Below, piece after piece: positions 6,331 through 56,809 of a stretch of 63,176 nucleotides of DNA. The notes beneath the pieces are model-generated. The model worked only from the letters and a program-made list of their open reading frames with translations, was not told the DNA's origin and did not search any database. Source of the DNA: Pseudonocardiaceae bacterium (GTDB lineage Bacteria; Actinomycetota; Actinomycetes; Mycobacteriales; Pseudonocardiaceae); the NCBI GenBank assembly GCA_039583705.1, contig JAVKSM010000002.1, positions 1 to 63,176 on the forward strand, in the 5' to 3' direction. Position 1 is the stretch's first letter. Every line of letters starts with the position of its first letter. Made by a program: the position numbers and the translations under genes.

Positions 6331-6579
6331 GGCCAGAGCACGGCGCCGCTCGACCGGGGTGGCGTCATCCGCGGCCGACCACCACGGCGCCCAGCGACGG
6401 GGCGGCCGACGACGCGGCGACCAGCGACGCGGCCGACGACGCGACGGCCAACAACGTGACCGTGGACGAGAACCCGGCAACCCGCGTGGCCCGCACCCGG
6501 CCCGGGGTGGCCCGACCGCGTGCGGGAAGGCGACGATGAGGGTCCCCACCCGCTCGACAAGAGATGAAGGAGGTCACGT

Positions 6580-40136: not shown

Positions 40137-41276
40137 GTGGCCCCCGGAGCTGTCGCCGTTCCCCTTTCCCGGTTGCGCCGGGTCCGTTCCGCGCTCACTC
40201 CGGGAGAGTGGGCGGGCATCTTCGGCATGACCGGGCTCATCGTGCTGCTCAACGTGATCGGGTGGGGGGTGCTGACGGCGTTCGTGGTGCCGGCCCACTA
40301 CGACCTGGGCACCTCCGGGGTGTTCGGGATCGGGCTGGGCGTCACCGCGTTCACCTTCGGGATGCGTCATGCCTTCGACGCCGACCACATCGCCGCGATC
40401 GACAACACCACCCGCAAGCTCATGGCCGAGGGGAAACGCCCGCTGTCGGTCGGGTTCTGGTTCTCCCTGGGCCACTCGACGATCGTGTTCGGGCTGTGCC
40501 TGCTGCTGGCGCTGGGCATCCGGGCACTCGCCGGGCAGGTGCAGGACGGCTCCTCGACCCTGCACCAGGCCACCGGGTTGATCGGCACCATGGTGTCGGG
40601 GGTGTTCCTCTACCTGCTCGGGGTCATCAACCTGGTGATCCTCATCGGGATCGTCAAGGTGTTCCGCGGGATGCGCCACGGTCGCTTCGACGAGGCCGGG
40701 CTGGAGAACCACCTCAACAACCGGGGGTTCATGAACCGCCTGCTCAAAGGCGCCACCAAGGCGGTGCGCAAGCCCTGGCACATCTACCCGGTCGGGGTGC
40801 TGTTCGGCCTGGGGTTCGACACCGCCACCGAGGTCGGGCTGCTCGTGCTCGCCGCTGGTGCCGCCGCCTTCGCGCTGCCCTGGTACGCGATACTCGTGCT
40901 GCCGGTGCTCTTCGCCGCCGGGATGAGCATGTTCGACACCGCCGACGGCTGCTTCATGAACTTCGCCTACGGCTGGGCCTTCGCCAAGCCCGTCCGCAAG
41001 ATCTACTACAACATCACCGTCACCGCGCTGTCAGTCGCGGTCGCCCTCGTCGTCGGCACCATCGAGCTGACCTCCATCCTGACCGACAAGCTGGGCATCG
41101 ACTCGGGCCCACTGGCCTGGATCGGCAACCTCGACCTCAACGACGTCGGTTTCGGCATCGTCGGTCTGTTCGTCGTCACCTGGATCCTCGCGCTGGCGGT
41201 ATGGCGGTTGGGCCGCATCGAGGACAAGTGGTCGGTCCACCTCAGCCCCACCCCGCCGGCGACCGCTCCGGACTGA
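40137..41276 (+). CDS. NiCoT-family (HoxN/HupN/NixA) nickel/cobalt transporter
   Basis: 'RHAFDADHIAAIDNTTRK' signature, 'FSLGHSTIV' and 'LFGLGFDTATEV'. Confidence 0.9.
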   Translation: MAPGAVAVPLSRLRRVRSALTPGEWAGIFGMTGLIVLLNVIGWGVLTAFVVPAHYDLGTSGVFGIGLGVTAFTFGMRHAFDADHIAAIDNTTRKLMAEGKRPLSVGFWFSLGHSTIVFGLCLLLALGIRALAGQVQDGSSTLHQATGLIGTMVSGVFLYLLGVINLVILIGIVKVFRGMRHGRFDEAGLENHLNNRGFMNRLLKGATKAVRKPWHIYPVGVLFGLGFDTATEVGLLVLAAGAAAFALPWYAILVLPVLFAAGMSMFDTADGCFMNFAYGWAFAKPVRKIYYNITVTALSVAVALVVGTIELTSILTDKLGIDSGPLAWIGNLDLNDVGFGIVGLFVVTWILALAVWRLGRIEDKWSVHLSPTPPATAPD

Positions 41277-41553: not shown

Positions 41554-41655
41554 GCCGCCACCGCGGAAGGGCCGCCACCGCGGAAGGGCCGCCACCGCGG
41601 AAGGGCCGCCACCGCGGAAGGGCCTCAGCCCCGGAAAGGCCTCAGCCCCGAACCG
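41554..41655. repeat. 17-nt tandem repeat: 4 perfect copies plus 2 variant copies
   Basis: GCCGCCACCGCGGAAGG x4 (41554-41621), then GCCTCAGCCCCGGAAAG and GCCTCAGCCCCGAACCG. The last unit contains the stop codon of the UPF0016 gene. Confidence 0.95.
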
Positions 41656-42229
41656 CCGCCACCAGGCTCACGACCGCCAGCACGGTCATCGCCGCCGCCG
41701 CCGCCCGCACCACCCACTGGATCGGCAGCAGCCGCGCCACCCGCTCGCCGCCGAACGCCGCCAGCGCGCCGACCGTCCACAACGCCAGCACACTGCCGAC
41801 GCCGACCGACAGCGGGGCGTGGTAGGCGGCGGCCAGGGTGGCCGTCACGATCTGGGTGAGGTCACCGAATTCCGCGATCAGCACGACCCCGAAGCTGGTC
41901 AGCGCCACCCGCGCGGGCGAGCGACTCGGCGCGCCCTCGACCCGCTCGTCGTGCCCGGCGACCCCGTGGCAGCCCCCCAGCAGCAGCGCCGCGCCGAGCA
42001 GGAACAGACCCGCCACCACGCCCTCCAGGGTCCGGTGCGGCAGCAGTGTGAGCAGGCTGCCGGCGGCCACGGCGAGCACGACGTGCACGACGAACGCGGC
42101 GCCCGCACCGGCAAGCACCCAGATCGGGCGGTACCGGGTGCCGAGCACGAGGCTGGCCAGGGCGGTCTTGTCGGGCAGTTCGGCCGGAAAGACGATCACG
42201 AAGGCGGTGAGGGCGACGGCGAGGTCCAC
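41642..42229 (-). CDS. UPF0016 (TMEM165/GDT1/MneA-type) cation (Mn2+/Ca2+) exporter
   Basis: Two copies of the E-x-G-D-(K/R)-(T/S) motif ('ELPDKT', 'EFGDLTQ') in a two-fold repeated 6-TM protein. Confidence 0.85.
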   Translation of the reverse strand: MDLAVALTAFVIVFPAELPDKTALASLVLGTRYRPIWVLAGAGAAFVVHVVLAVAAGSLLTLLPHRTLEGVVAGLFLLGAALLLGGCHGVAGHDERVEGAPSRSPARVALTSFGVVLIAEFGDLTQIVTATLAAAYHAPLSVGVGSVLALWTVGALAAFGGERVARLLPIQWVVRAAAAAMTVLAVVSLVAAVRG

Positions 42230-42439: not shown

Positions 42440-43162
42440 TCACCCGAGGACGGCGGACAGCGCGAGCTCGAGGAGGGCGGCCTCGACGTCGCTGCGCCGC
42501 CGTTCCCGCTCCGGTGGCAGTGGATCGGTCCAGGAGCGGCCGGCGGCGAGGTCGTCCCACACGTAGAGCAACGATGCGGCGTGCATCCCGACCCAGGACG
42601 CGGCCGCCAGCGTCGCCGCGCTCTCCATGTCCACGGCGAGCAACCCGTCGGCGCGCCACCGGGCCACCAGCGAGGCGGGCTGGCGCAGCAGCACCTCGGT
42701 CGTCACGGTCGGTCCCCGCCGTACCGCCAGTCCCCGAGCGGCGGCGGCGGCGGCCAACGCGTCGACCAGCGCCGCGTCGGGGCGTACCCACCGACCTGCG
42801 CCGTAGTGCGCCGACGCGCCCTCCTCGCAGCGCACCTCCTCGGCGAGCACGAGGTCCCCGGGCGCCGACCCGGGCGCCACCGCCCCGCACGAACCGATCT
42901 GGACCACGACCGGGCAGCCGAGCTGGCCCAACACGTGCACCGGTTCAACGGTCCGCGCCGCGCCGTACACACAGGCGTAGCCCACGGCGGTGCCCCGCCA
43001 ACGGCCCCACCACCAGTCCGGGGCGGCGAGCTCGCGAACGTCGCTGAGCAGGGCCAGTCGCTGGCGTTCCCGGTCCCGGCGCCACCACGACCCTTCGACG
43101 ACGAGCAGCCGCGGGACCTCCTCCGGGGCGAGTCCCACGATCCGAGCCCAGTCCTGGTCCAC
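42440..43162 (-). CDS. PNP_UDP_1-family nucleoside phosphorylase-like protein
   Basis: 'QIGSCGAV' and 'LAVDMESAA' motifs of the purine/uridine phosphorylase fold. Confidence 0.65.
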   Translation of the reverse strand: MDQDWARIVGLAPEEVPRLLVVEGSWWRRDRERQRLALLSDVRELAAPDWWWGRWRGTAVGYACVYGAARTVEPVHVLGQLGCPVVVQIGSCGAVAPGSAPGDLVLAEEVRCEEGASAHYGAGRWVRPDAALVDALAAAAAARGLAVRRGPTVTTEVLLRQPASLVARWRADGLLAVDMESAATLAAASWVGMHAASLLYVWDDLAAGRSWTDPLPPERERRRSDVEAALLELALSAVLG

Positions 43163-43264
43163 CGAGGCAGGTTAGAGGCACGATCCGGAACGGCAGGCCG
43201 CGACGAACACCTCGTCACGCAGCCCACCCGCCCCCGTCCCGCCGTGAGGATCCTGGGAGGACAG

Positions 43265-44548
43265 ATGGCCGCCGCCCTCACCGACGCCGTCGACGCCCCA
43301 CCGCCACCGGCCGCGCCCGCTCCGCGCCACGTCGCCATCCTGGGGGCCGGGCCGATCGGCTTGGACGCCGCGTTGGCCTGCGTCGAGGCCGGATGGCCGT
43401 TCACGGTCTACGAGGCGGCCACGACCGTCGCCGGCAACGTCCGAGCCTGGGGCCACGTGCGGCTGTTCACCCCGTGGTCGATGAACGTCTCGGACCGGAT
43501 GCGGTCGCACCTGTCGGCCGCCGGGGTCGCGGTGCCCGCGGCCGGCGGCGGCTACCCCACCGGCGCCGAGGTCGCCGAGCGGTTGCTCGAGCCGCTGGGC
43601 GCACTGCCGACGCTGGCGCCCCACATCCGCACCGCGACCGAGGTGCTGGGCATCGCCCGCCGCGGCCTGCTCAAGCACGAGGAGATCGCCACCGCGGTAC
43701 GCGGCGAGCATCCGTTCCGGTTGCTGCTGGCCGGGCCGGACGGCAGCGAGCGGGTCGAGTACGCCGACCTGGTGCTGGACTGCACGGGCAGCTACGGGCG
43801 GGGCAACACCCTCGGCGACGGCGGCATTCCGGCACCGGGCGAGCAACGGCTGGCCGACCGGATCACGCGGCGGATCCCGGATCTGGTCGCCGACCGGGCC
43901 GGGTGGAGCGGACGCACCGTACTGCTCGTCGGTGCCGGGAAGTCGGCCCAGACCGCTGCCCGCGACCTCGCCGACCTGGCGCGGGCCGAGTCGGCCACCC
44001 GGGTGGTGTGGGCGGTCCGAGCCTCGGAGCCGGACTGGGGCGAAGTGCCCGACGACCCGCTGCCGCAGCGCCAGGAGCTGGTCGACGTCGCCGAGCGGCT
44101 GCGCTCCGGCGAGGTGCGGGGCGTGGAGGTCCGCACCGGGGTGGTGGTCGACGCGCTGCGCGCCGAGGGGGACGGCGTGGCGGTGACGCTGCGCACCGAC
44201 GCGGGTGACGCCGAGGAGATCGCTGTCGACCGGGTGCTCGCGCTGACCGGGTTCCTCGGTGACACCTCGCTGTACCGCCAGCTCCAGGTCCACGAGTGCT
44301 ACGCCACCGCGGCCCCGATGAACCTGTCCGCCGCGCTGCTGGCCGCGGCCGGCGACGGCCCGGCGGACTGCCTGACCCAGGAGCCGCACGGCGTGGACGC
44401 GCTGCGGGTGCCCGAGCCGAACTTCTTCGTGCTCGGCATGAAGTCCTACGGCCGCAACCCCACCTTCCTGCTCCGGGTCGGCTACGAGCAGGTGGACGAG
44501 ATCGCCGCCGCCTACTCTCCGGGTCCGCGTCAGACGGCGCAGTTGTAG
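43265..44548 (+). CDS. FAD/NAD(P)-binding oxidoreductase
   Basis: 'HVAILGAGPIGLDAALA' and a second 'VLLVGAGKSAQTAA' Rossmann motif. ATG 43265 lies inside a 909-aa shadow ORF. Confidence 0.7.
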   Translation: MAAALTDAVDAPPPPAAPAPRHVAILGAGPIGLDAALACVEAGWPFTVYEAATTVAGNVRAWGHVRLFTPWSMNVSDRMRSHLSAAGVAVPAAGGGYPTGAEVAERLLEPLGALPTLAPHIRTATEVLGIARRGLLKHEEIATAVRGEHPFRLLLAGPDGSERVEYADLVLDCTGSYGRGNTLGDGGIPAPGEQRLADRITRRIPDLVADRAGWSGRTVLLVGAGKSAQTAARDLADLARAESATRVVWAVRASEPDWGEVPDDPLPQRQELVDVAERLRSGEVRGVEVRTGVVVDALRAEGDGVAVTLRTDAGDAEEIAVDRVLALTGFLGDTSLYRQLQVHECYATAAPMNLSAALLAAAGDGPADCLTQEPHGVDALRVPEPNFFVLGMKSYGRNPTFLLRVGYEQVDEIAAAYSPGPRQTAQL

Positions 44549-46257
44549 ACCAGGGGCAGTGAGCCGTCACGCTGGCGCAGCCGCAGGAACAACTCCACCG
44601 CGCGCCGCTTGGCCTCGGCCATGCCGATCTCCGGAGAACCGAGCAGCATGTCAGGGCTCGTGCCGACGTCGGCGCCCGCGGGGTGCCAGTGCCAGCCGTC
44701 GGTCGTTGCGGTCAGCTCCGGAACCGTGTTGTCCTCGTCGATGACGATGCCGTCATCGGAGTTCCCGCGCTTGACCAGCGGCCGCACCGCGAAGTCGCGG
44801 CCCTGGACACCGTGCGCGACCAGCAGCTCGCGCAGCGGCTCGACCTGGGCGGAATTGGCGGGAGTCTCGGTCATCCCGACCCGCACCGGCAGCCCCAGCG
44901 AGAGGGCTGTCGACAGCCCGTCCATCGCCCGGGCCCACGACCCCGCGCCACGGTTGGCGTCGTGGAAACGGGCCTGCGCGCCGTCCAGCGACGTCTGCAG
45001 CACCAGCCGCGGGCGGCCCGCCAGGCGCCACAACTGCTGGCGGCGCCAGCCCTGGTACAGCATGCCGTTGGTCAGGCACACGGTGTCGATGCGCTCGGTG
45101 CAGTAGAGCAGCATCTCGACGATGTCCGGTTCGAGGAACGGCTCGCCGCCGGTGACGTAGAGCTCCGTGAAACCCTCGCCGACGGCCTCGTCGACCAGCT
45201 CGGTGAACCGTGCCGACCCCATCCGGCGGCGCCGCGCCTGCGGCGAGGAGGCGACCGAGCAGTACGTGCAGGCCAGGTTGCAGTGGAAGTTCGTGTAGAG
45301 CCACAGTCGCGACGGGAACTGCGCCGAGCCGAACAGCGGCAGCACCGGCAGCCCGTCGTCGGGCACCTCCGGAGCGTCCGCCCAGCTCGCCTCGGCGCCC
45401 GCGAAGGCGGGCACGGCGGTCTTGTAGAGCTGGTACCGGCCCCGGGAGCGCTCCGCCGGCGGCACGATCTCCAGGCAGGTGGTCCACCAGCCGGTTTCGA
45501 CGGTCTGGACGAACGCCTCCGGCAGCCCGGCAGCCCGCATCGAGGCGGCGTGCGCGCGCCAGTCGTAGTCCAGCTTCACCAGCTCCGCCGACGCCCGCCC
45601 TTCGGCGCAGTCCAGCAGCGCGTACCAGACGTGGCGGCCGCCGTCGTTGGCCGGACGTCCGATCACGCCGACGTTGACGACGAGGGTCTCCCGGCCGTCA
45701 GCCCCGGTCTCAGCTCCGGGGTCGTCCGCACCCTGGTCCCCGCCGAAGCGCCGGATCCATGGTATGCCGGAGTGGGTGCAGCAGATGACGTCCGCTCCCG
45801 AGGCGGCGATCCGCAGCCGGTGCTGCTCGTCGGGCAGCGACTCCCACCAGAAGTCGTTGAGCGCCAGCGGGGAGCCGTGCACCAGGTGGAGGTCCACGCC
45901 GTCGACGCGCTCGCGTCGCTCGGTGGCCAGCGTCGTCATCCAGTGGGCGAACTCCGCGCTGGTGTGGCGGAAGGTGTAGTCGTAGGCGACCGCCGCGAAA
46001 GCGTTGTCGTCGGCGTCCGCGTAGCCGCAGCCGCAGTCCGCCTGGCGCCTGCCGATCGCGACGTCATAGTTCCCGGCGATGCACTCGACGCCGGCGTCGA
46101 GCAGGATCGGCCACAGCGCGTCGGGGTCGGCACCGAAGCCCCCGAGGTCACCGAGGAACACCAGCCGGTCGGCTCCCCTGGCCCGGGCGTCGGCGACGAA
46201 CGCGCGCAGCGCGTAGGGGTTGGAGTACGTGCCGCCGCACAGGGCCAGCCGGGTCAT
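44530..46257 (-). CDS. metallophosphoesterase-like domain fused to a radical SAM domain (575 aa)
   Basis: The N-terminal half has 'FLGDLGGFG', 'GNYD', 'HLVHGSP' and 'CCTHSGIPW' (calcineurin-like order). The C-terminal half has 'YTNFHCNLACTYCS' (CxxxCxxC) and 'LYVTGGEPFL'. ATG 46257 is preceded by GAGGAGG. Confidence 0.8.
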   Translation of the reverse strand: MTRLALCGGTYSNPYALRAFVADARARGADRLVFLGDLGGFGADPDALWPILLDAGVECIAGNYDVAIGRRQADCGCGYADADDNAFAAVAYDYTFRHTSAEFAHWMTTLATERRERVDGVDLHLVHGSPLALNDFWWESLPDEQHRLRIAASGADVICCTHSGIPWIRRFGGDQGADDPGAETGADGRETLVVNVGVIGRPANDGGRHVWYALLDCAEGRASAELVKLDYDWRAHAASMRAAGLPEAFVQTVETGWWTTCLEIVPPAERSRGRYQLYKTAVPAFAGAEASWADAPEVPDDGLPVLPLFGSAQFPSRLWLYTNFHCNLACTYCSVASSPQARRRRMGSARFTELVDEAVGEGFTELYVTGGEPFLEPDIVEMLLYCTERIDTVCLTNGMLYQGWRRQQLWRLAGRPRLVLQTSLDGAQARFHDANRGAGSWARAMDGLSTALSLGLPVRVGMTETPANSAQVEPLRELLVAHGVQGRDFAVRPLVKRGNSDDGIVIDEDNTVPELTATTDGWHWHPAGADVGTSPDMLLGSPEIGMAEAKRRAVELFLRLRQRDGSLPLVYNCAV

Positions 46258-46490
46258 CGGCGTCCTCCTCAGGTATCGGTTGAACCTACGTTCGGTCCGG
46301 CCGACCTGTCCGGGTCGGCGTCGGACGTCACGATCAGCTCGCCCGGGCTCGGGCGCCGGCGCCGACGCGGCTGACCAGGCGCTGGGATGGTCACGGCCGG
46401 CCGGTATGTCGAACACAGGCTTCCCCCGTCCGCCGAGCCCACCCGCCAGGGTGTCGTCGCGCCCGCCCGGGCCTGCCGTACCGTCGCTGG

Positions 46491-47480
46491 ATGGAACGCT
46501 GCTCGACGCTGTCGGCAGCCCTCGGCGAGCCGCTGGCCGGCACCGCACCCCAGGCCGTGCGGTGGTTGTGCGTGGAGCACGACGGCCCGTGGGGTCGCGA
46601 CGTCGAAGAGACCGACCCGACCCTCGCCGAGCTGGGCCGCCGGGCCGCGGCGACCAACACCCGGCTCGAGCTGATGCGGCGGCCCGGCCGTCTCCCATCA
46701 CCCGGCCGTCTCCCATCCCCCGGCCGCTTCCCAGAACCCGGCCGTCTCTCCGCACCCGGCCGCCGACGCGCCGCGTTGCTCGCCGACACCCGGCCTGGTT
46801 CGAGCCGGCTGCACCTGCTGGAGATCGCCGGACTCGACGAGCTGCTCGACCTCGACCTCGACCTCACCGCCGCGCTGCCGGGCACCCGACTGGACGAGCC
46901 GCAGTTGCTGGTCTGCGGTCACAGCCGGCGCGACCAGTGCTGCGCGATCGCCGGTCGTGCGCTGGGTGCGGCACTGCCCGGTGCCTGGCAGTGCAGCCAC
47001 CTCGGCGGCCACCGCTTCGCCCCCACCGCGGTGGTGCTGCCGACCGGCTACCTCTACGGCCGGCTCGACGCCGCAACCGCCGCCGCAGCGTTGACCGCCG
47101 CCACGGTCGGAGACGTGGTGACCGAGCGTTGCCGGGGCCGCTCCACGTGGGATCCGGTCGGGCAGGTCGCCGAGCTGGCCGTGCGTGCGTTCTCTGGGGA
47201 GCGCGGCGCCGACGCGCTGACCGTCCCCACTCCGGAGGTGCCCGGAACGAAGGGGTCCGGCGCGAGCCAGCCCGGCACGAACCGACCCGCGCCGGATGGA
47301 TTCTGGGTGCAGGTCGACGCCCGCGACGGCCGGAGCTGGCGGGTGCGCATCGAGGCCGCGCCGCTGCCCGGTGTGCGCCCGAGCAGCTGCGGCGCCGAGG
47401 CAACCCCGGCCAGCCCGCTGGTGGCGGCCGGGGTGACCCCGCTGCACCGGCCGGCTACCGCTGGCCGCCCTCCACGGTGA
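46491..47480 (+). CDS. sucrase/ferredoxin-like (thioredoxin-like [2Fe-2S]) protein
   Basis: 'LLVCGHSRRDQCCAIAGRAL' and 'CSHLGGHRFAP' match the Suc_Fer-like signature. Confidence 0.75.
   Translation: MERCSTLSAALGEPLAGTAPQAVRWLCVEHDGPWGRDVEETDPTLAELGRRAAATNTRLELMRRPGRLPSPGRLPSPGRFPEPGRLSAPGRRRAALLADTRPGSSRLHLLEIAGLDELLDLDLDLTAALPGTRLDEPQLLVCGHSRRDQCCAIAGRALGAALPGAWQCSHLGGHRFAPTAVVLPTGYLYGRLDAATAAAALTAATVGDVVTERCRGRSTWDPVGQVAELAVRAFSGERGADALTVPTPEVPGTKGSGASQPGTNRPAPDGFWVQVDARDGRSWRVRIEAAPLPGVRPSSCGAEATPASPLVAAGVTPLHRPATAGRPPR
46683..46766 (+). repeat. in-frame 18-nt (hexapeptide PGRLPS) tandem repeat, about 4.5 copies, inside the ferredoxin-like gene
   Basis: CCCGGCCGTCTCCCATCA / CCCGGCCGTCTCCCATCC / CCCGGCCGCTTCCCAGAA / CCCGGCCGTCTCTCCGCA / CCCGGCCGCCGA... 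Confidence 0.9.
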
Positions 47481-47483
47481 CCG

Positions 47484-48239
47484 TCACTGGGCGCTGACGA
47501 TCACATAGAACCGCGCGCCGAACGGGTCGGCGAGCTGTGCCCAGCGCCCGTAGGGCGCGTCCTGCGGCTCGGACACCACCGAGCCGCCCAGCTCCCGGGC
47601 CCGCGCGGCCGTGGCGTCTGCGTCCGTCACATCGAAGTACACCCGCCAGTGCGAGGGTGCGTCCGCGCCCTCGCACTGGCCACCCACGGAGTTGCCGTCG
47701 ACCTTCATGACGGTGTAGCCGAATCCCTGTCCCTCCCCCACCTGGTCGTAGGTGTAGCCGAAAACGGTGGCGTAGAACTCGTTGGACCGCGGCCGGTCCG
47801 GCGTGGACAGCTCGTTCCACGCCATCGTGCCGGGCTCGTTGACGAGCTGGGCGCCGGTGTGCTCACCCGCCTGCCAGACGCCGAAAGTCGCCCCCGTCGG
47901 ATCGAGCGCGAAGCACATCCGACCCTGCGTGCCGACGTCCGTCGGCTCCATGAGCAGGGTGGCGCCGGCGTCTACGGCGGCCTTCGCCGTCGCGTCCGCG
48001 TCGTCAGTGGCGAAGTAGGTGTTCCAGGTCGGCGACGCCTCGCCCCCCTGCGCCGGGCTCACCGCGGCAACCCTCTTCCCGCGCAGGTAGGCGATGGAGT
48101 AGGAGCCATACTCCGGCTCGCCCTTCTCGATCTCCCAGCCGAACAGCTCCCGGTAGAACCGGACGCCGCCGTCGATGTCCGGGCAGGTGACGTCCGCCCA
48201 GGACGGCGTGCCCGGCGCGTACCCGCTCTTCTCGACCAT
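47484..48239 (-). CDS. VOC (glyoxalase/bleomycin-resistance/dioxygenase) family protein, two-domain
   Basis: Duplicated 'FY..LFGW / FYATVFGY' beta-alpha-beta-beta-beta modules. ATG 48239 chosen, because upstream ORF sequence is translation of a DNA repeat array. Confidence 0.8.
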   Translation of the reverse strand: MVEKSGYAPGTPSWADVTCPDIDGGVRFYRELFGWEIEKGEPEYGSYSIAYLRGKRVAAVSPAQGGEASPTWNTYFATDDADATAKAAVDAGATLLMEPTDVGTQGRMCFALDPTGATFGVWQAGEHTGAQLVNEPGTMAWNELSTPDRPRSNEFYATVFGYTYDQVGEGQGFGYTVMKVDGNSVGGQCEGADAPSHWRVYFDVTDADATAARARELGGSVVSEPQDAPYGRWAQLADPFGARFYVIVSAQ

Positions 48240-48305
48240 CGCTGCCTCCTCCTCGTGGTCAGGCGAGCAGCATCGCACGCCGGTCCGACACAAATGGCGA
48301 AGGCG

Positions 48306-48440
48306 GTCGCCCGCACGACTCGGGTGAAAAAGTTGCCCGCCCGCACGACCCGGGTGAAAAGTTGCCCGCCTGACCCGGGTGGAACAGAAGGTGGTTGCCC
48401 GCCTGACCCGGGTGAACAACGGTCGCCGCCCGAGGTGGAC
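48306..48440. repeat. array of five ~27-33-bp direct repeats, three carrying an exact ACCCGGGT palindrome
   Basis: GTCGCCCGCACGACTCGGGTGAAAAA / GTTGCCCGCCCGCACGACCCGGGTGAAAA / GTTGCCCGCCTGACCCGGGTGGAACAGAAGGTG / GTTGCCCGCCTGACCCGGGTGAACAACG / GTCGCCGCCCGAGGTGGACC. Fills the divergent VOC/ACAD intergenic region. Confidence 0.85.
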
Positions 48441-48469
48441 CACCTTCCCGCGCCTGCCGGCGGATAGCG

Positions 48470-49612
48470 TTGACGGACGTGCAGGTACCCGCGCTGTTCG
48501 CCCCCGCCGCCGAAATCGTCGACCACCCTGCGGTGCGCACCGCCTCCCGCCTCGCCGACGATCTGATCGCCCCGCACGCGGCGGAGTCCGACGACCCGGC
48601 CCTCGGCGTCGACCCGGCCCGGCTTCGTGCCCTCGCCGACGCCGGGCTGGCGTCGGTCAAGGTGCCCGCCGCCGACGGTGGCCTGGGTGGCAGCGACCGG
48701 GTCGACGCCGAGGTCGTCGAACTGCTCGCCGGGGCCGACGCCGCCACCTGGTTCGTCCTCACCCAACACCGGCTGCCCCAGAACCTGTGCCGCGCTCCCG
48801 CTGCCGGGCTGCCCGACGGCGCCGCCACCGCCGGGCCCGCTGGGCGCCGGTACCGCGACCCGCTGTGCCGGGCGAGCGGGCTGGCCGGTATCGCGATCGC
48901 GCACGTCCGCCGCCCCGGGTCGCCCGCGGTAGCCGCCGAGCCCGACGGCCACGGCGGCTACCGGCTCTCCGGCCGCGCCGACTGGTGCACCGGGTGGGGC
49001 CTGATCGACCTGCTGCTGGTCGCCGCGCGCACCCCGGACGAGCGCTTCGTCTTCGGGTTGCTGCCCGCCCGCGAGCAGCCCGGGCTGCGGGCCAGCGGGC
49101 CGCTGCCGCTCTCGGTCATGGGCGGGACCCGGACCGTCTCGCTGACCCTGGACGGGCTCGCGCTGGCGGCCGAGGACCTGCTGCTCACCGTCGACATCGC
49201 GGCCTGGCAGCGGGTCGACCTGGCCCGGACCGCCAACGCCACGCCGGCGTCGCTCGGCCTGCTGCGCAGGGTGCTGACCGAGCTGGAACGGCTCGGCGCG
49301 GCGCGGCGGCTCCCGGAGGCCGTCGACCTCGCGCTCGCGCTGGCACAACCGGCCGTCAAGCTGCGCGCCGAGGCCTACGCCCTGCTCTGCGAGGTGCCGC
49401 CCACCGAGCGGGTTGCGGAGCGGGCGGCGCTGCGCGCCGAGCTGTCCGAGCTGACGGTACGGGCCGTGGCCGGGCTGGTCGCCGCCCGGGCAGGCTCGGC
49501 GATGCTGACCACGAGTCCGGAGCAGCGCTGGGCGAGGGAAGCCGCGTTCTTCCTGGTCCAGGCGCAGACGGGCGATGTCCGGGCCGCCCAGTTGCGGGCA
49601 CTGCGAGGATGA
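48470..49612 (+). CDS. acyl-CoA dehydrogenase-fold protein
   Basis: The overall ACAD layout is recognisable ('LADAGLASVKVPAADGGLG', 'WCTGWG'). TTG start in the track; the call is weak. Confidence 0.55.
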   Translation: MTDVQVPALFAPAAEIVDHPAVRTASRLADDLIAPHAAESDDPALGVDPARLRALADAGLASVKVPAADGGLGGSDRVDAEVVELLAGADAATWFVLTQHRLPQNLCRAPAAGLPDGAATAGPAGRRYRDPLCRASGLAGIAIAHVRRPGSPAVAAEPDGHGGYRLSGRADWCTGWGLIDLLLVAARTPDERFVFGLLPAREQPGLRASGPLPLSVMGGTRTVSLTLDGLALAAEDLLLTVDIAAWQRVDLARTANATPASLGLLRRVLTELERLGAARRLPEAVDLALALAQPAVKLRAEAYALLCEVPPTERVAERAALRAELSELTVRAVAGLVAARAGSAMLTTSPEQRWAREAAFFLVQAQTGDVRAAQLRALRG

Positions 49613-49616
49613 GCCG

Positions 49617-50441
49617 GTGCGGGTGCTGCAGGCGGACTGGAATCACTGGCCGGACCACGGTGCGCCCGCCGAGGCCGACCCGGCCTGCTGGGAGGCATGC
49701 GCCCGGCTCGGGGTCGGCGGTGTCGAGGTCGGGATCTACGAGGCGGCCGTGGAGCTGTCAGCCGCCCGGGAGCGCGCCCGCGACGTGCTGGCCGCCGAGC
49801 ACCCGGTCGAGGTGGCCGCATTGCTGTTGTCGCTGCCGGCCGCGCGCTGGCCCGCGGGGGCGCTGTCCGGTGGACAGACCGACCGGCTGGTGCTCGAGGT
49901 GACGGCGTGCGCAGCGGTCACCGCACGTCGGGGCCTTGCCGTCCTCGGGCTGTGGCCGGGGGCCGACCCTGCGCTTGCGCCCTGGGAGGAGTGCGTGGCG
50001 GCCCTGGCCCGCTGCCGCGACGCGGCAGCGGCGCACGCCGTCCGGCTGGCCGTGGAGTACAAGCCCGGCACGGTGGTCGGTGACGTCGACGCGGCGCTGC
50101 GGCTGGCTCGGGCGGTGCCGGGCACGGGGGTGCTGCTGGACACCGGGCACGCCTGGGCCGCCGGGGAGGACCCCGCCGAGTGCGTGCACCGGCTCGCCGG
50201 GCAGGACGTGCTGTGGCAGGTCCACCTCGGTGACGCGGCGGACGGGGCGGCCGACGACGACCTGCCGCTCGGCCGGATCCACGACCCGGCGCCGCTGGTC
50301 GCCGCGCTGGAGGAGGTGGGCTACCCGGGCACGGCCACCTTCGACCTCTACGGCGCGGTCTGCTCCGGGGCGTGGTCGGGAGAGGAGGCGCTGGCACAGT
50401 CGCTGGCCGCCCTGCGTTCGGCGGCACGGGGTGACGAGTGA
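49617..50441 (+). CDS. xylose-isomerase-like TIM-barrel sugar(-phosphate) isomerase/epimerase
   Basis: 'RLAVEYKPG', 'VLLDTGHAWAAGEDP' and 'VHLGDA' follow the AP-endonuclease-2/UlaE/SgbU-type motif order. Confidence 0.7.
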   Translation: MRVLQADWNHWPDHGAPAEADPACWEACARLGVGGVEVGIYEAAVELSAARERARDVLAAEHPVEVAALLLSLPAARWPAGALSGGQTDRLVLEVTACAAVTARRGLAVLGLWPGADPALAPWEECVAALARCRDAAAAHAVRLAVEYKPGTVVGDVDAALRLARAVPGTGVLLDTGHAWAAGEDPAECVHRLAGQDVLWQVHLGDAADGAADDDLPLGRIHDPAPLVAALEEVGYPGTATFDLYGAVCSGAWSGEEALAQSLAALRSAARGDE

Positions 50442-51373
50442 GGGCACTGGTCGCCCGGGGGCCCGGCGCGTTCGCCGTCGAGGAGGTGCCCGAGCCGGTA
50501 GTGGCACCGGGTGGGCGGCTGGTACACGTCGAGGCCGCCGGGGTGTGCGCCGCGGACCGCAAGCTGTACACCGGTCAGCACCCGTGGGGCGAGCTTGAGT
50601 GGCCGGTCGTCCCGGGTCACGAGCTGCTCGGCGTCGATGACGCCACCAGCGAGCGGATCACCTGCGAGGTCAAGGTCCCCTGTGGACGGTGTCGGTGCTG
50701 TGCGAGCGGCAGGGGGAACCTGTGCCCCACCGGCCCACACCTGGGATCCGGCATCCCCGGCGCGTTCGCGGAGCGTCTGGCGCTGCCGCCGGACGCCCTG
50801 GTGCACCGGGTGCCGGCCGCGCTCGCGACGACGGCCGCGGTGCTCGCCGAGCCGATGGCCTGCGCGCTGCACGCGGTGCGCCGCGCCGGGGTACGGGCCG
50901 GGGACGCGGTGACAGTGATCGGGTTGGGCTCGGTCGGAGCCCTGGCCGTGCACGCCGCCCGGGCGGCCGGCGCCGAGGTCGCCGCCGTGGTCCGCAGCCA
51001 GGCCAAGGCGACGCTGGCACGCCGCCTCGGTGCGAGCGTCGACGTCGGGGACGCCCCCCGTGTGGTGATCGAGTGCTCGGGGTCGGCGGCCGGCGCGGCC
51101 GCGGCGTTGCGGCTCGTCGCTCCCGGCGGGAGCGTCTGCTACTTCGGTGTCTATCCGCCGACGGTGGCACTGGACCTCAACCAGGTGGCCGAGTTCAAGG
51201 AGCTGACGGTGGTCGGCGGGCACCTTGCGCCCGGCTGCTTCCCCGAGGCGGTCGAACTCCTGTCCACCGTCGACGCTGACGCCGTGGTGACCGCGCGGCG
51301 CCCGCTGGCGCAGTTCCGGGTCGCCCTGGAACCGTCCGTTGCTCCCCGTGTCAAGGAGGTTCTGGTGCCGTGA
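50438..51373 (+). CDS. zinc-dependent medium-chain alcohol/polyol dehydrogenase
   Basis: 'AAGVCAADRKLYTG', 'VPGHELLG' and the structural-Zn Cys cluster 'CGRCRCCASGRGNLC'. ATGA/GTGA coupling to its neighbours. Confidence 0.85.
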   Translation: MRALVARGPGAFAVEEVPEPVVAPGGRLVHVEAAGVCAADRKLYTGQHPWGELEWPVVPGHELLGVDDATSERITCEVKVPCGRCRCCASGRGNLCPTGPHLGSGIPGAFAERLALPPDALVHRVPAALATTAAVLAEPMACALHAVRRAGVRAGDAVTVIGLGSVGALAVHAARAAGAEVAAVVRSQAKATLARRLGASVDVGDAPRVVIECSGSAAGAAAALRLVAPGGSVCYFGVYPPTVALDLNQVAEFKELTVVGGHLAPGCFPEAVELLSTVDADAVVTARRPLAQFRVALEPSVAPRVKEVLVP

Positions 51374-52032
51374 GCTACCCCAGCGGAGACCTGCGCGACC
51401 AGCTTGCGCACGTCGGCGCGGACGCCGTGCGCGCTGGGCTCGTCGTCGGCTCCGGCGGAAACCTCTCGGCCCGCCACCCCGGCGCGGACGCCTGCTGGGT
51501 GACCGCGTCGGGCACCTGGCTGGACCGCCTGGAGCGCCCGGGGTTCTCCCTGGTGCGGATCCCGGACGGTGCCGTGCTCGACGGGCACCCGAACCCGTCG
51601 AGCGAGTGGCGGCTGCACACCGAGACCTATCTTGCCCGCGCCGACGTCAACGCGATCGTCCACCTGCACCCGCAGACGTCGGTGCTGCTCGCCGCGCTCG
51701 GCCACCAGGTCAAGTTGATCACTACCGACCACGCCTACTACGTGCGGGCGGTGGCGGTGGCGCCGTTCGCCGAGCCCGGCACCGAGAAGCTGGCCAGGGA
51801 GGCCGCCGACGCGGTGGCCGGCGGGGTCGACGCGCTGATCCTGTCCCACCACGGCTGCTCGGTCCTCGGGCCGGACGTGGAGCTGGCGCACAAGCGGGCG
51901 TCCAACCTCGAGGAGGCCGCCCGGGCCACCTATGCCGCGCTGCTGCTGGTCGGGGGAGACGCGGCGAGGGTGCCGGGATGCCCGCCGGAGTACCTGGAGA
52001 ACATCCTGCGCGGCGCCGCCTCCAGCGCATGA
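51370..52032 (+). CDS. class II aldolase/adducin-family protein (L-ribulose-5-P 4-epimerase / fuculose-P aldolase-like)
   Basis: 'GSGGNLSAR', 'SSEWRLHTETY' and 'AIVHLHP' motifs. Confidence 0.85.
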   Translation: MSYPSGDLRDQLAHVGADAVRAGLVVGSGGNLSARHPGADACWVTASGTWLDRLERPGFSLVRIPDGAVLDGHPNPSSEWRLHTETYLARADVNAIVHLHPQTSVLLAALGHQVKLITTDHAYYVRAVAVAPFAEPGTEKLAREAADAVAGGVDALILSHHGCSVLGPDVELAHKRASNLEEAARATYAALLLVGGDAARVPGCPPEYLENILRGAASSA

Positions 52033-53399
52033 GCGACTACGTGCTGCTGCTCGACGTGGGTGGCTCGGCGGTCAAGGCGAGCGCGCACGGACCGCAGACC
52101 GCGGTCGTCGTCACCCGGGGCTACCCGGTTCACCGGCCCGCGCCCGGTCGGGTGGAGGTCGACCCGCAGACCCTGCTCGCGGTGGCGCTTGGCGCCGGCG
52201 CGCAGGCCGTGTCAGCCGCCGGCGCGGGCTGTCTGGCCGTCGTGGCATGCACGCTGCGTCAGGGCTTCGTGTTGCTCGGCGGCGGCGGACGCGAACTGGG
52301 TCCATTAGTGCCGAACAACGACCGCCGCGGCGCCGGGCACGAGATCGTCCTCGCTGGCCGGTACGAGCTGACCGGCCACTGGCCGGCCGCCGAGCTGACC
52401 CTGCCCAAACTGCTCACGATCGCCGACGAGCAGCCCGAGCTGCTGGCCGAGACCGCCCACCTGCTCTTCTGGCACGACTGGCTGCTGCACCGCCTCGGCG
52501 CACGGCCGCTCTGCGGTGTGGACTACGTGTGCGCGGGCGGGATGGCCGACGTGGCCGCCCGCGGCTGGGCCCGGGACTGGTTGGTCGAGCTCGGGATTCC
52601 CGGCCGCTGGCTCGGTGAGGTCGTCGAGGCCGGTACCCGGGTCGGGGCGTTGTCGCACGGCGCGGCCGGCGCGCTCGGTCTGCCGGCCGGGACGCCCCTG
52701 GTGGCCGGCGGCGGCGACACCCAGATGGCGGCGGCCGGCTCCGGGGGTCTGGCCGCGGACACCGTCACGGTCGTCGCCGGCTCGTCCACCCCGGTGCAGC
52801 TCGCCGCCGCCGCTGCGACGACCGGCGACCCTTGCCAGCATCCCTGGGTGTCCACGCATCTGCGCGCCGACCTGTGGGCGCTGGAAGGCAACGCCGGCTA
52901 CCCGGGAGCCCACTGGGGCGGGGTACAGCGGATGTTCGGCTCGGCGGCTCCCGCCGAGGCGGAGGTCGACGAGGTTCCGCCAGGGGCCGACGGGTTGCTG
53001 GCACTGGTCGCCGCGCCCTGCTGGGCGGCGGAGGTGTGGCGGCGGCGTCCGCCGGCGGGACTGGTCGGGCTCACCCCTCACACGACGGCGGCGCAGCTCG
53101 TGGCAGCCGTCGAAGAGGCGCACGGCCACGGTGTGCGTGGCAACGTCGAAGATCTGCAACGGGTCGTCGGGCGTCGACTCGACGTGGTGGTCGCCGGACC
53201 GGCTCGGATCGCGCAGCGGGTGGCCGACGCGCTGGGCCGCCCCGTGCGCCACGCCGCGGCGGCGGGCGCCGCCGCCGCGGCGTGGTCGCTGACCACCGAC
53301 GAGCCGCTGCCTTCGCCCGGACCGGAGCGCGCCCCGCGCCCGGACCGGGTCGACGGTGTCGACGCCGCCTACCACCGCTGGCTCGCTGCGCTCGGATAG
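52029..53399 (+). CDS. FGGY-family sugar kinase
   Basis: 'LLLDVGGSAVKA' N-terminal motif and 'GGGDTQMAAAGSG'. ATG 52029 overlaps the upstream stop. Confidence 0.8.
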   Translation: MSDYVLLLDVGGSAVKASAHGPQTAVVVTRGYPVHRPAPGRVEVDPQTLLAVALGAGAQAVSAAGAGCLAVVACTLRQGFVLLGGGGRELGPLVPNNDRRGAGHEIVLAGRYELTGHWPAAELTLPKLLTIADEQPELLAETAHLLFWHDWLLHRLGARPLCGVDYVCAGGMADVAARGWARDWLVELGIPGRWLGEVVEAGTRVGALSHGAAGALGLPAGTPLVAGGGDTQMAAAGSGGLAADTVTVVAGSSTPVQLAAAAATTGDPCQHPWVSTHLRADLWALEGNAGYPGAHWGGVQRMFGSAAPAEAEVDEVPPGADGLLALVAAPCWAAEVWRRRPPAGLVGLTPHTTAAQLVAAVEEAHGHGVRGNVEDLQRVVGRRLDVVVAGPARIAQRVADALGRPVRHAAAAGAAAAAWSLTTDEPLPSPGPERAPRPDRVDGVDAAYHRWLAALG

Positions 53400-53409
53400 C
53401 GTCGGGGGC

Positions 53410-54459
53410 GTGGGACGCGCGCTGGTCACCGCCGAGGTCTCCGATGCCGGGCTGGCCCGGCTCGCGCGGCTGGGCTACCAGGTCCACCGGGCCGGTTGGG
53501 GTGCCACCGGCCAGACGCTGCGGCCAGCCGAGCTGCTCGCGGCGGCGGCGGGCGCCGAGCTGCTCGTCACCGAGGTCGAGCCCGTCGACGCGGCTGTGCT
53601 GGAGGTCTGCCCGGGACTGCGGGCCGTCGCCGCCGCCCGCGGCACACCGTCGAATGTGGACGTCACGGCGTGCACGGACCGCGGCGTGCCGGTGCTGCAC
53701 GCACCGGGCCGCAACGCTGCGTCGGTCGCCGACTTCACCCTCGGGCTGATCCTGGCGGTGGCCCGGCGGATCGTGGCGGGGGCCGAGCACCTGCGTCGGC
53801 AGGGCTGGCACGTGGTCTCCGCCGACGGCGTCGTCGAGCTGCCCTACTTGCACTTCCGGGGCCCGGAGCTGGCCGGTCGGGCCCTCGGGCTCATCGGCTA
53901 CGGCGCCGTCGGCCAAGCGGTGGCTCGGCGTGCCGCGGCCGGCTTCGGGATGCGGGTGGTGTACTGCGACCCCAACGTCGCGGGCTCGCTCCCGCTGGAG
54001 GAGCTGCTGGGGGCCGTCGACGTCGTCAGCCTGCACTGCCCGCGCGGCCCCGAGACCGAACGGCTGATCCGGTACGACACGCTCGCGCTGATGCGGCCGG
54101 GTACGGTGCTCGTCAACACCGCTGGCGGGGCCTGCGCGGACGGGCTGGACGTGCTGGGCGCACTGCGGTCCGGACAGCTCGCCGGCGCTGCGCTGGACGT
54201 CTTCGCGACCGAGCCGCTGCCGGCTGACGACCCGCTGCGGGCCGGCGTCGAGGAGGGCCTGAACCTGCTGCTCACCCCGCACCTGGCCGGCGCGGCCGAC
54301 GACGTCGTCGCCCACCACAGCGACATGCTGTGCGCCGACATCGAGGCGCTGCACGCCGGACACCCGCCCCGGTACTGCGCCAACCCGTCCGTGCTGTCGG
54401 CCGCTCACCTGGCGGAGGGCGCAGCTACCCGGGACGCGCGGCTAGGCTCGCCGCCGTGA
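53410..54459 (+). CDS. D-isomer-specific 2-hydroxyacid dehydrogenase family protein
   Basis: '[16 protein letters not shown]' NAD motif, 'LVNTAGG' and '[10 protein letters not shown]'. Confidence 0.85.
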
Positions 54460-55579: not shown

Positions 55580-56809
55580 ATGGCTCGTCCGCCGCTCGCT
55601 CTCGGGCACCATGGAACGGTCAAGCTCTCCCGTGAGGACGGGCAGTGGGTGGCTCGCTGCCGGGTCCGCGACCTCGATGGCGTGACCCGCCGTGTCGCAC
55701 GCTGGGGATCCTCACGGGCAGCGGCGCAGCGTGCCTTGCAAGACGAGCTGCGCCAGCGCCGCGGTGAGCGCACCGAACCGCTCCGGCCGCACTCCCGGTT
55801 CAGCGACGCCGCGGCCATATGGATGGAGAAGATCAGAGAGCGGCGAGAAGACTCCACCGCCGACACTTACCGACACTGGCTTGAACACGTCGTGCTCCCC
55901 CAGCTCGGCGCGCTGCGCCTCGCCGAGTGCGACGTCGTCCAGCTCGATGCCTTCTTCACCCGCCTGGAACGCGCTCGACGCGCTGTCGAGCGCGAGGACG
56001 GCTCAACCTCCGAGGTGGTCCGCTATGCGGCGAACACCCGACGCACCATTCGCGCCATCGTGGCCGGCGTCCTGCAGCAGGCCGTGCTCCACCAAGCCCT
56101 CGCAGCCAACCCGGTCCGCGAGCTGGAGCGCATCGAGTCCCCCAGGAGCCACCGCAGGGCCCCGCCCCGTGGGTTGACCGCCGAAGAGCGGCACCGGCTG
56201 CTCGCCTTCATCGACACTGACAAGGTTGCTATCGGCGCCGACCTACCCGACCTGATCCGCTTGGGCATCGGCTCCGGGCTGCGCATCGGTGAGCTGTGCG
56301 CGGTGCGCTGGCTCGACCTCAACCTGAAGGGCATCCCCGTCGTCAGCGAGCACGACATGCGCTTGGTGCCGGTGGTGGCAGTGCGGCAGAACGTCTACCC
56401 CGTCAAGGGCAAGGGTCTGGTCGTGCATGGCGGCAAGACCGCCACGGCGCTGCGCATTGTCCCCCTCCCCGAGTTCGTCATCACCCGGTTGCGCGTGCGG
56501 TGGCACGGCGACGAGAACCCGGAATGGCCGGTGTTCGCCGCCGCAGGCCGCGACGGACAACCCACTTACCGCTGGCCCTCCAACGTCCGGCGCAGCGTGC
56601 GTGCGGTCCGCGAGCAGGTGTGCCTGGAGTGGATGACCCCGCACACCTGGCGACGCACCTACGCCACCATCCTTGACGACGAGATGAGCTTGACCGACCG
56701 CGTCAAGGCCGACCTCATGGGCCAGGCAAAATTCCTCAAAGACACCTACGTCAGCCGTGGGGAGCTTCACCCCGACGCCGCGGTGTTTCTCGACGCGGCA
56801 TTGCGTTAA
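55580..56809 (+). mobile_element. tyrosine-type site-specific recombinase (phage/ICE integrase) next to tRNA-Lys
   Basis: 409 aa. 'GLRIGELCAVRW' (box I Arg) and 'TPHTWRRTYATIL' (HxxR), with a C-terminal Tyr in 'KDTYVSRG'. Starts 98 nt after the tRNA. Confidence 0.85.

Follow-up and report, generated by a model that had tools for sequence, protein, structure and literature searches.

Carbon-arsenic bonds are made, to our knowledge, by three types of enzymes only, ArsM, ArsS and ArsL, and we know of no genes for most of the organoarsenic cycle, including the reduction of methylated As(V), the removal of adenine and the processing of the sugar after ArsS, and the origin of dimethylarsinoyl-ethanol (DMAE), dimethylarsinoyl-acetate (DMAA), arsenocholine and arsenobetaine. 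Two-carbon (C2) organoarsenicals of the DMAE and DMAA type are long-postulated precursors of arsenocholine and arsenobetaine, and we are aware of no genes for these precursors. Arsenic is a mimic of phosphate. In HpnH/HpnG and in MqnE/MqnB, a radical adenosylase is paired with a nucleosidase of the purine nucleoside phosphorylase (PNP) family. We consider here a stretch of 63,176 nucleotides from a Pseudonocardiaceae bacterium (GenBank assembly GCA_039583705.1, contig JAVKSM010000002.1, positions 1 to 63,176 of the forward strand), which we call the window, and in it a gene whose product, P0001, joins a phosphoesterase-fold domain to a radical S-adenosylmethionine (SAM) domain.

Two described enzymes bear directly on this protein. 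ArsS, as Cheng et al. (2021) are cited in PMC12159101, adds a 5′-deoxyadenosyl group to trivalent dimethylated arsenic, DMAs(III). Car1 of Rufibacter tibetensis is, in the account that PMC12124457 gives of Shen et al. (Mol Microbiol 2024;122:201), an arsenate reductase, the activity of which requires Cys74 and Cys76; the same account places in isolates of Paraclostridium dentum and Tepidibacter an arsR-Orf1-arsM arrangement, where Orf1 is ~40% identical to Car1. The kinds of activity that stand behind P0001, the Car1 reductase and radical SAM chemistry at carbon-arsenic bonds, are thus known; what is new here is the fusion architecture, and the conserved neighbours of the gene suggest that carbon-arsenic compounds are built by an undescribed route. 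That we are dealing with an arsenic system as such is likely, because the CxC domain of the fusion, the flavoprotein encoded beside it and an ArsM-like gene of related loci all have homologues inside bona fide ars operons. Our preferred reading, to which we would give a probability of roughly 0.45, is more specific: P0001 would be a bifunctional arsenic-transforming enzyme, the N-terminal domain of which reduces or holds an arsenical while the radical SAM domain makes a carbon-arsenic bond, probably by adenosylation, the neighbouring enzymes then trimming the adenosyl group.

A conserved two-domain protein

The fusion gene and its parts are listed below; alignment A1 comprises fusion proteins, A2 comprises 30 sequences, and A3 comprises nine, ars-operon phosphoesterases included.

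44530-46257, minus strand: fusion gene P0001, 575 aa, a Car1-like CxC phosphoesterase-fold domain and an Rv1681-like radical SAM domain (translation, Pfam, NCBIfam)
45418-46257, minus strand: N-terminal domain, residues 1-280, metallophosphoesterase fold (alignment to 3rqz, Foldseek, A1-A3)
46027-46035, minus strand: C75-G-C77, invariant Cys pair in an 8-residue insertion (30 of 30 sequences in A2, 9 of 9 in A3)
44533-45321, minus strand: radical SAM domain (residues 313-575), for which NCBIfam NF049973 'Rv1681 family' is the nearest family
45259-45282, minus strand: CX3CX2C (C326, C330, C333), predicted ligands of the SAM-cleaving [4Fe-4S] cluster (sequence; invariant in A1)
44539-44541, minus strand: C573 in the C-terminal NCAV, invariant among fusions (A1) and also found in stand-alone Rv1681-family proteins

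We take the ATG at 46257 as the true start, because homologues open with the same M-T/I-R-L/I-A; a longer ORF (open reading frame) of 741 aa over the fusion is a high-GC artefact. Pfam recognises both halves of the protein, Metallophos_2 at residues 15-219 (E 1e-7) and Radical_SAM at residues 325-461 (E 5e-16), and the AlphaFold2 (AF2) model has a mean predicted local distance difference test score (pLDDT) of 85. A word-indexed search returned more than 3000 homologues, the best 120 of which span 526-643 aa and mostly have recorded Pfam matches to both domains. A full-length relative is carried by 331 species genomes or loci in a scan of Actinomycetota with one genome per species, distributed among Pseudonocardiales, Mycobacteriales, Frankiales, Acidimicrobiales, Egibacteraceae and Solirubrobacterales, and two cultured isolates, Pseudonocardia nigra DSM 104088 and Actinomycetospora cinnamomea DSM 45771, are among the carriers. 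An assembly artefact or a chance fusion is ruled out by these numbers, isolates included, and the joining of the two domains, first noticed in a sequence-only reading of this DNA, is genuine and conserved. The motifs quoted in that reading, GGTYSN, DCGCGY, CNLACTYC and GGEPFL, are all present in P0001, and its remark that no characterised enzyme has this architecture agrees with our literature search, which turned up none and returned nothing on Rv1681 as a radical SAM enzyme.

For neighbour counts, 80 loci, those of the two isolates included, were kept from the 331, and 36 of these 80 extend over at least 15 kb; all counts out of 80 given below refer to this set. In 301 genomes, sampled evenly from the phylum, we counted 3-4 fusions, ~12 stand-alone Rv1681-like radical SAM genes and ~6 stand-alone homologues of the N-terminal domain, with no match to this domain (E <= 1e-20) in the sampled genomes that have a stand-alone Rv1681-like gene. 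The idea that the fusion might be the Rosetta stone of Rv1680 and Rv1681 of Mycobacterium tuberculosis is ruled out, Rv1680 being a PhnD-like binding protein and not a phosphoesterase. We are left with one protein chain, carried by hundreds of actinobacterial species of the soil, that appears to couple a domain derived from arsenate reductase to radical SAM chemistry, and its cultured carriers make the arsenic idea directly testable.

The N-terminal domain

The fold of the first 280 residues is that of a metallophosphoesterase, as witnessed by a profile match to the solved phosphoesterase 3rqz (E 1e-18), by a match to Pfam PF12850, and by the nearest solved folds, SapH (3qfm) and 3rqz, with target-normalised Foldseek TM-scores of 0.75-0.81; no NCBIfam model matches the domain at E <= 0.01. 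A competent calcineurin-like phosphoesterase has a set of five motifs (DxH, GD, GNH(D/E), H, GHxH), and in the residue alignment to 3rqz this set is incomplete. Motif I is lost, SDVHAN of 3rqz having become GGTYSN (D to G9, H to Y11), just as the sequence-only reading had it; that reading had also held motifs II to V to be recognisable, which is only partly right, because, while II and IV are kept (D37 and H127), motifs III and V are each half-degenerate, GNH having turned into GNY64 with N63 retained and the His gone, and GHTH into THSG with H162 retained and the second His replaced by G164. In terms of the usual phosphoesterase scheme, the M1 metal site has none of its three ligands left (replaced by G9, Y11 and G164), and the M2 ligands D37, N63, H127 and H162 are invariant. 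Behind motif III stands DCGCGYAD, an insertion of eight residues that holds the Cys pair, and the domain ends in a C-terminal extension, GWWTTC261LEIVPP.

Stand-alone homologues with the same CxC motif are found in ars operons: in the five genomes sampled, ACR3 was adjacent in four, ArsM or an ArsM-like gene in two and ArsR in one. A Pontibacter plasmid has the order arsR-DUF6428-MPE-ACR3 and a Paraclostridium plasmid the order arsR-MPE-arsM, MPE standing for the CxC homologue, and the plasmid proteins are annotated as 'metallophosphoesterase family protein'. Alignment A3 splits the CxC proteins into two subfamilies, ars-operon proteins with SDIHxN and GHTH, and a fusion type with GGxYSN, THxG or GHCG, and PANDG, to which belong the domain of P0001, the stand-alone proteins P0149 and P0176 and the other fusions P0208 and P0243. 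Members of the fusion type share the C-terminal extension, usually with the extra Cys (C261), and in P0243 the same type of domain is joined to a TIGR04169 'arsenosugar-associated peroxidase-like' protein. Because the alignment separates the ars-operon proteins from those of the fusion type, the N-terminal domain is best placed, as far as sequence goes, on a derived branch of the Car1 lineage rather than as a Car1 orthologue.

The likeness to Car1 is nonetheless substantial, comprising the calcineurin-like fold, the GNY of motif III and, judged from the residues quoted for Car1 in PMC12124457, a CxC at the same place (Cys74/Cys76 against C75/C77). As stand-ins for Car1 we aligned the CxC phosphoesterases from the Pontibacter and Paraclostridium ars operons, which come from the family or genus of the published proteins and are 28-29% identical to the domain. 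These Car1-type proteins keep the full set of binuclear ligands (SDIHxN, GHTH) where the fusion domain has GGxYSN and THxG, and they have P-KDG where it has PANDG; the fusion adds the C261 extension and a covalently attached radical SAM domain, and while the Car1-type genes sit in ars operons, that of P0001, in the window, does not. If our reading is right, the phosphoesterase fold has been taken one step beyond Car1, with half of the metal centre lost. A phosphorylated substrate, as the sequence-only reading had proposed, is unlikely, the M1 ligands and the motif III His having been lost and a Car1-type Cys pair gained, and the flavoprotein and the genes found next to relatives of the fusion (ArsM, TIGR04283, ArsR) indicate arsenic instead.

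The genes for stand-alone type-B domains were seen on short contigs, on which the following contexts rest. That of P0149 (locus L104, contig from the European Nucleotide Archive, 1-2500) begins 10 bp after a gene whose product ends in a Cys-rich tail, with no significant match to P0208 or Pfam; behind the P0149 gene come a DedA/VTT-domain gene and a gene for a MerA-like disulfide reductase (GGDCLAFGCVPSK). That of P0176 (L106, 168-2384) lies directly behind a gene for a phosphate-selective porin (Porin_O_P).

The radical SAM domain

The second half of P0001 has, besides CX3CX2C, the GGEPF motif of the radical SAM core, and its best-matching family is that of Rv1681 ('MoeX'), with which it shares the core, an HWHP-type region and a C-terminal C-A ending. 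P0001 scores 259.9 bits against NF049973, below the whole-protein cut-off of 380, and aligns with profile positions 71-326 only, positions 1-70 finding no counterpart; the stand-alone protein P0166 scores 456.8 bits. Rv1681 proteins have an N-terminal part of ~70 residues where P0001 has the 280-residue CxC phosphoesterase-fold domain. Three stand-alone members (P0159, P0166, P0170) end in (N/R)CA, and P0001 combines CX3CX2C with the same C-A ending. Genes for PhnD-like binding proteins are recurrent neighbours of the family, as of the fusion. For the Rv1681 ('MoeX') family of M. tuberculosis, the fusion offers a first clue to function. By eye, residues 1-80 of P0166 and P0170 resemble a TusA/SirA-like sulfur carrier in which the cysteine of CPxP is replaced.

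An auxiliary-cluster motif was not found, P0001 having no Cys from residue 334 up to C573, and since C573 is the sole conserved Cys after CX3CX2C, the absence of an obvious SPASM/twitch cluster, already proposed from the letters alone, is borne out. The tail that carries C573 is predicted to be flexible (pLDDT <50 for residues 568-575). Matches to SkfB, SuiB, BlsE and MoaA, whether by structure or by sequence, are generic. A role as SPASM/twitch enzyme or peptide maturase was rejected, there being no auxiliary Cys and the matches to MftC, SkfB and the like staying at the level of the common core, and so was a MoaA-like role in molybdopterin synthesis, which the old 'MoeX' name would suggest, the similarity (E 1e-14) being generic only.

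ArsS is a radical SAM enzyme as well, and P0001 belongs to another lineage, Rv1681-like, with a reductase-like domain built in: it reaches 39.4 bits (E 4e-10) against TIGR04167 (ArsS), for which the cut-off is 300, and has no Cys-rich C-terminus. The two nevertheless share companions, ArsM and TIGR04283 accompanying relatives of the fusion and TIGR04169 being fused to its type of N-terminal domain.

The conserved gene cluster

The conserved cluster of P0001 spans positions 42440-54459 of the window. Its other genes are the following, together with two genes that lie within this interval and outside the conserved system.

43265-44548, plus strand: two-Rossmann flavoprotein P0002, 427 aa (Pfam Pyr_redox_2)
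42440-43162, minus strand: PNP_UDP_1 nucleoside phosphorylase/nucleosidase-like gene, transcribed away from the flavoprotein gene (Pfam E 9e-24)
48470-54459, plus strand: operon of six genes whose stop and start codons overlap (Pfam, NCBIfam), made up of the next six entries
48470-49612, plus strand: acyl-CoA dehydrogenase (ACAD)-like, with SfnB-like N-terminus
49575-50441, plus strand: xylose-isomerase-like triose-phosphate isomerase (TIM) barrel
50438-51373, plus strand: zinc-dependent alcohol dehydrogenase (ADH)
51370-52032, plus strand: class II aldolase
52029-53399, plus strand: FGGY kinase (tblastn and translation)
53356-54459, plus strand: 2-hydroxyacid dehydrogenase
46491-47480, plus strand: Suc_Fer-like protein P0003, 329 aa (Pfam Suc_Fer-like, E 6e-17)
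46491-48245: the Suc_Fer-like gene together with a two-domain vicinal oxygen chelate (VOC)/glyoxalase gene (47484-48245, minus strand), outside the conserved system

The most constant neighbour of the fusion is P0002, linked to it in 49 of the 80 loci and in 26 of the 36 that are at least 15 kb long, which makes of the flavoprotein a genuine partner. Plasmids supplied 154 records of homologues with 36-38% identity across >90% of the length, and all three plasmid regions that were inspected proved to be ars operons: arsR, flavoprotein, major facilitator superfamily (MFS) transporter and oxidoreductase on Rhodococcus pREL1; arsC, trxB, flavoprotein, arsC, low-molecular-weight phosphatase and MFS transporter in Arthrobacter; arsR, flavoprotein and arsI in Streptomyces. 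By sequence and by likeness to the published descriptions, P0002 appears to be a homologue of the ArsO/ArsV kind of ars flavoprotein, ArsO being a putative flavin monooxygenase and ArsV an NADPH flavin monooxygenase that oxidises trivalent monomethylated arsenic, MAs(III) (bioRxiv 10.1101/2021.08.12.456183). The ars-operon flavoproteins carry a Cys-rich C-terminal tail which the P0002 type lacks, while P0002-type proteins have a QLQVHECYATAAPM segment absent from the three ars-operon flavoproteins aligned (alignment A5). In the structural model (pLDDT 79) the nearest fold is that of the bacillithiol disulfide reductase Bdr/YpdA, followed by ferredoxin-NADP reductases of the thioredoxin reductase-like kind and by N-hydroxylating monooxygenases, so that P0002 may be a reductase or an oxygenase.

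The PNP-like gene accompanies the fusion in 17 of the 80 loci, where it and the flavoprotein gene usually form a divergent pair, and the best NCBIfam match of its product, a weak one (E ~1e-11), is HpnG. The six-gene operon looks like a pathway for cleaving a deoxysugar, of the fucose or 5-deoxyribose type. Its FGGY kinase gene was concealed within a 686-aa ORF (51339-53399), the ATG overlapping the stop codon of the aldolase gene (ATGA), and the kinase is 45% identical to that of the Acidimicrobiales operon; in 13 loci, belonging to another class, the same operon genes stand in synteny with the fusion.

De novo clustering of the fusion neighbours separated two types of context. Type I (35 loci, mostly Pseudonocardiales) is characterised by the TIGR04283 'arsenosugar biosynthesis glycosyltransferase', of which a single representative was scored (234.6 bits for a cut-off of 182), and further comprises a second, unnamed radical SAM protein of 470 aa, a SelL-related redox protein (its gene present in 33 of the 80 loci) and a MerA-like disulfide reductase. 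Type II, found in Acidimicrobiales, Frankiales, Mycobacteriales, Egibacteraceae and the present window, has PNP_UDP_1 (17 loci), the six-gene operon (13), an aldehyde dehydrogenase (ALDH, 15), PhnC/D/E-type transporter genes (12), an ArsM-like gene (9) and ArsR-type regulators, these last standing beside the fusion in 2-3 of the 80 loci. No locus has both the glycosyltransferase and the PNP/sugar-cleavage context, the two excluding each other, and 44 of the 80 loci have at least one gene annotated for arsenic (TIGR04283, ArsM-like or ArsR). The window holds the full type II set; P0001 is nevertheless most similar (81%) to proteins from type I contexts.

The second radical SAM protein (~470 aa, CNLACTPCYHS), encoded at 6469-7878 (minus strand) of locus L009 and in 38 other loci, gave no NCBIfam match and a weak Pfam Radical_SAM match only; its gene divergently adjoins the fusion in most Pseudonocardiales loci.

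Arsenic genes are found elsewhere in the genome of our organism. A 5.3-kb contig (C153) has at 1707-3035 a gene, standing alone, for an ArsM-like methyltransferase with an N-terminal CCPVDYD and a C-terminal GCC, 69% identical to those encoded beside the fusion in relatives, and another contig (C105, 2960-4401) has a classical pair of ArsR (CVC motif) and ACR3. No TIGR04283, second radical SAM or PhnDE genes were found in this genome.

A possible route to carbon-arsenic compounds

Taking these components together, the following sequence of events may be proposed. A pentavalent arsenical would bind the remodelled phosphate site, either arsenate or, more likely since the metal has been lost, a methylated species. 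C75 and C77 would reduce it while forming a disulfide, and the As(III) species thus formed would move on to the active site of the radical SAM domain, perhaps assisted by C261 and by the flexible C573. There, the 5′-deoxyadenosyl radical would add to arsenic and create a carbon-arsenic bond, a reaction of the ArsS type. The flavoprotein would re-reduce the disulfide, in the manner of Bdr/YpdA, or else adjust the oxidation state of arsenic, in the manner of ArsV, and the PNP-like enzyme would take off adenine. In type II clusters, the isomerase-like TIM barrel, the FGGY kinase and the class II aldolase would then split 5-arsinoyl-ribose into dihydroxyacetone phosphate (DHAP) and a C2 arsenical aldehyde, which the ADH (or the ALDH of relatives) would turn into an alcohol or an acid. 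In most Pseudonocardiales clusters the TIGR04283 glycosyltransferase would replace the sugar-cleaving genes.

Adenosyl transfer is favoured over plain hydrogen abstraction because an enzyme of the PNP family, with HpnG as its best match, is linked to the fusion, because the isomerase/kinase/aldolase set is syntenic with one radical SAM gene across classes, and because this sugar-cleavage set alternates with a glycosyltransferase. The mutual exclusivity of the two contexts fits two alternative fates of one ribosyl intermediate. The likeness to HpnH/HpnG and to MqnE/MqnB lies in the pairing of a radical SAM enzyme with PNP_UDP_1; the similarity is weak (E ~1e-11), and their substrates, hopene and a chorismate derivative, are not metalloids. 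If the proposal is true, P0001 would open a third radical SAM route to carbon-arsenic bonds, after ArsS and ArsL, and the fusion travels with the very kinds of enzymes that the missing steps of organoarsenic metabolism would require.

A bolder extension, decidedly improbable as it stands, would have the cluster encode a full bacterial pathway that starts from arsenic in inorganic or methylated form and ends in C2 organoarsenicals (DMAE, DMAA or their arsonate analogues), by way of Car1-like reduction, adenosylation by an enzyme other than ArsS, removal of adenine, splitting of the sugar, and finishing by ADH/ALDH and an ArsM-like enzyme. The clusters of the glycosyltransferase type would then make arsenosugar-like glycosides from the same intermediate.

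Competing explanations

Several points weigh against adenosylation of arsenic by P0001. Every chemical step of the scheme is inferred, and salvage of 5′-deoxyadenosine could be all that the PNP-like enzyme and the sugar operon do. At 39 bits, the radical SAM domain is no ArsS, and the Cys-rich C-terminus of ArsS is missing from it; the matches to HpnH (E 2e-11) and to ArsS (E 4e-10) are both at a generic level. The N-terminal domain is without the binuclear centre that Car1-type proteins keep, and may therefore not be a reductase. The label 'arsenosugar' in TIGR04283 and TIGR04169 itself rests on co-occurrence, and the window itself is without an ArsM, ArsR, ACR3 or TIGR04283 gene. Finally, the stand-alone Rv1681-like genes in the loci inspected have no arsenic context: one adjoins a gene for an Rv1680-family PhnD-like binding protein, a GalE-like short-chain dehydrogenase/reductase is encoded near three of the other four, and a DoxD-like gene is present in two.

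The main rival, somewhat unlikely in our estimate, retains arsenic but has the radical SAM domain abstract a hydrogen atom, in the canonical way, from an organoarsenical, which, once reduced to the trivalent state, would be transformed or broken down (for instance by carbon-arsenic cleavage, demethylation or rearrangement), while the PNP-like enzyme and the operon recycle 5′-deoxyadenosine via 5-deoxyribose to DHAP and acetaldehyde. An isomerase, a kinase and a class II aldolase are indeed what salvage of 5-deoxyribose needs; genes for a PhnC/D/E-type ATP-binding cassette (ABC) importer, which adjoin the fusion in 12 of the 80 loci, suggest uptake of an organo-oxyanion; the ALDH, ADH and ACAD-like genes lend the cluster a catabolic look; and the same generic matches to HpnH and ArsS leave the domain without specific similarity to adenosylating enzymes. 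A general salvage of 5′-deoxyadenosine, however, is not expected to be syntenic with one radical SAM gene across classes, ArsM and the glycosyltransferase of relatives indicate biosynthesis, and the exclusivity between glycosyltransferase and PNP/sugar cleavage is easier to explain with the sugar in the product. An unlikely variant concerns the first domain only, which would be a module for binding and delivering As(III), or another soft metalloid, on the thiols of C75, C77 and C261, reduction taking place elsewhere. The replacement of all three M1 ligands and of the motif III His is in its favour, as are the conserved third Cys, C261, in an extension specific to the subfamily, and the invariant C573, three-thiolate sites being typical for As(III) (ArsR, ArsD, ArsM); yet the invariant M2 ligands argue for a retained oxyanion or metal site, and the MerA-like and SelL-related redox proteins that travel with the fusion, along with the Bdr-like flavoprotein, fit the turnover of a disulfide.

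A system unrelated to arsenic, handling phosphorus or selenium species, is very improbable. It could adenosylate phosphite to create a C-P bond, or act on a phosphorylated substrate as the sequence-only reading had it, and it would account for the PhnD/PhnE-type transporter genes among the neighbours, for the SelL-related redox protein in 33 of the 80 loci, and for Rv1680, the partner of stand-alone Rv1681, which is PhnD-like and also matches a 'putative selenate' substrate-binding protein model; cleavage of a 5-phosphono-ribose by the operon would yield phosphonoacetaldehyde. Against this stand three independent components with homologues in ars operons, namely the CxC domain, the flavoprotein and the ArsM-like gene, the fact that phosphate is not reducible by a dithiol, and the degenerate state of the phosphoesterase catalytic apparatus. 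It is extremely improbable, lastly, that the fusion forms a self-sufficient three-gene unit in which the Suc_Fer-like protein donates electrons to the radical SAM cluster and is recharged by the flavoprotein. The three genes are adjacent in the window, the match of P0003 to Suc_Fer-like is solid (E 6e-17), and cleavage of SAM needs some reductant; the Suc_Fer-like gene is nevertheless linked to the fusion in none of the 80 loci, which already suggests that it is dispensable, and it and the VOC gene break up a divergent arrangement that is otherwise conserved.

Other features of the window

The flavoprotein, fusion and Suc_Fer-like genes lie where they had first been placed, with a convergent overlap of 19 bp between the first two and a gap of 233 bp between the divergent fusion and Suc_Fer-like genes. 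What had been read into this neighbourhood fares unevenly: the flavoprotein half is conserved (49 of the 80 loci), while the Suc_Fer-like half is not (0 of 80), so that the [2Fe-2S] protein, seen initially as a plausible electron donor within a self-sufficient module of radical chemistry, is incidental. The same count of 0 of 80 holds for the VOC gene. In two Acidimicrobiales loci (L058, L065) the ACAD-like/TIM/ADH operon is directly upstream of the fusion and divergent from it, tblastn showing the same in L057 and L063, and in the window this operon is 2.2 kb away from the fusion; because it abuts the fusion divergently in L058 and L065, the Suc_Fer-like and VOC genes (46491-48245) are probably an insertion. 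The Suc_Fer-like protein has, between its N-terminal part and its Cys-bearing core, a proline-rich repeat-like insert at about residues 63-93 (RPGRLPSPGRLPSPGRFPEPGRLSAPGRRR).

Beyond the PNP-like gene lie a NicO-type high-affinity nickel/cobalt transporter gene (40137-41276, plus strand) and a GDT1/UPF0016 cation antiporter gene (41642-42229, minus strand), neither of which stands next to the fusion in any of the 80 loci of relatives. At the other side, ~1.1 kb past the end of the operon, there is a phage-type integrase gene (55580-56809, plus strand), and the G+C content drops from ~0.75 to 0.60-0.64 toward the end of the contig (56000-63176); the integrase and the fall in G+C suggest that an integrated element borders the cluster.

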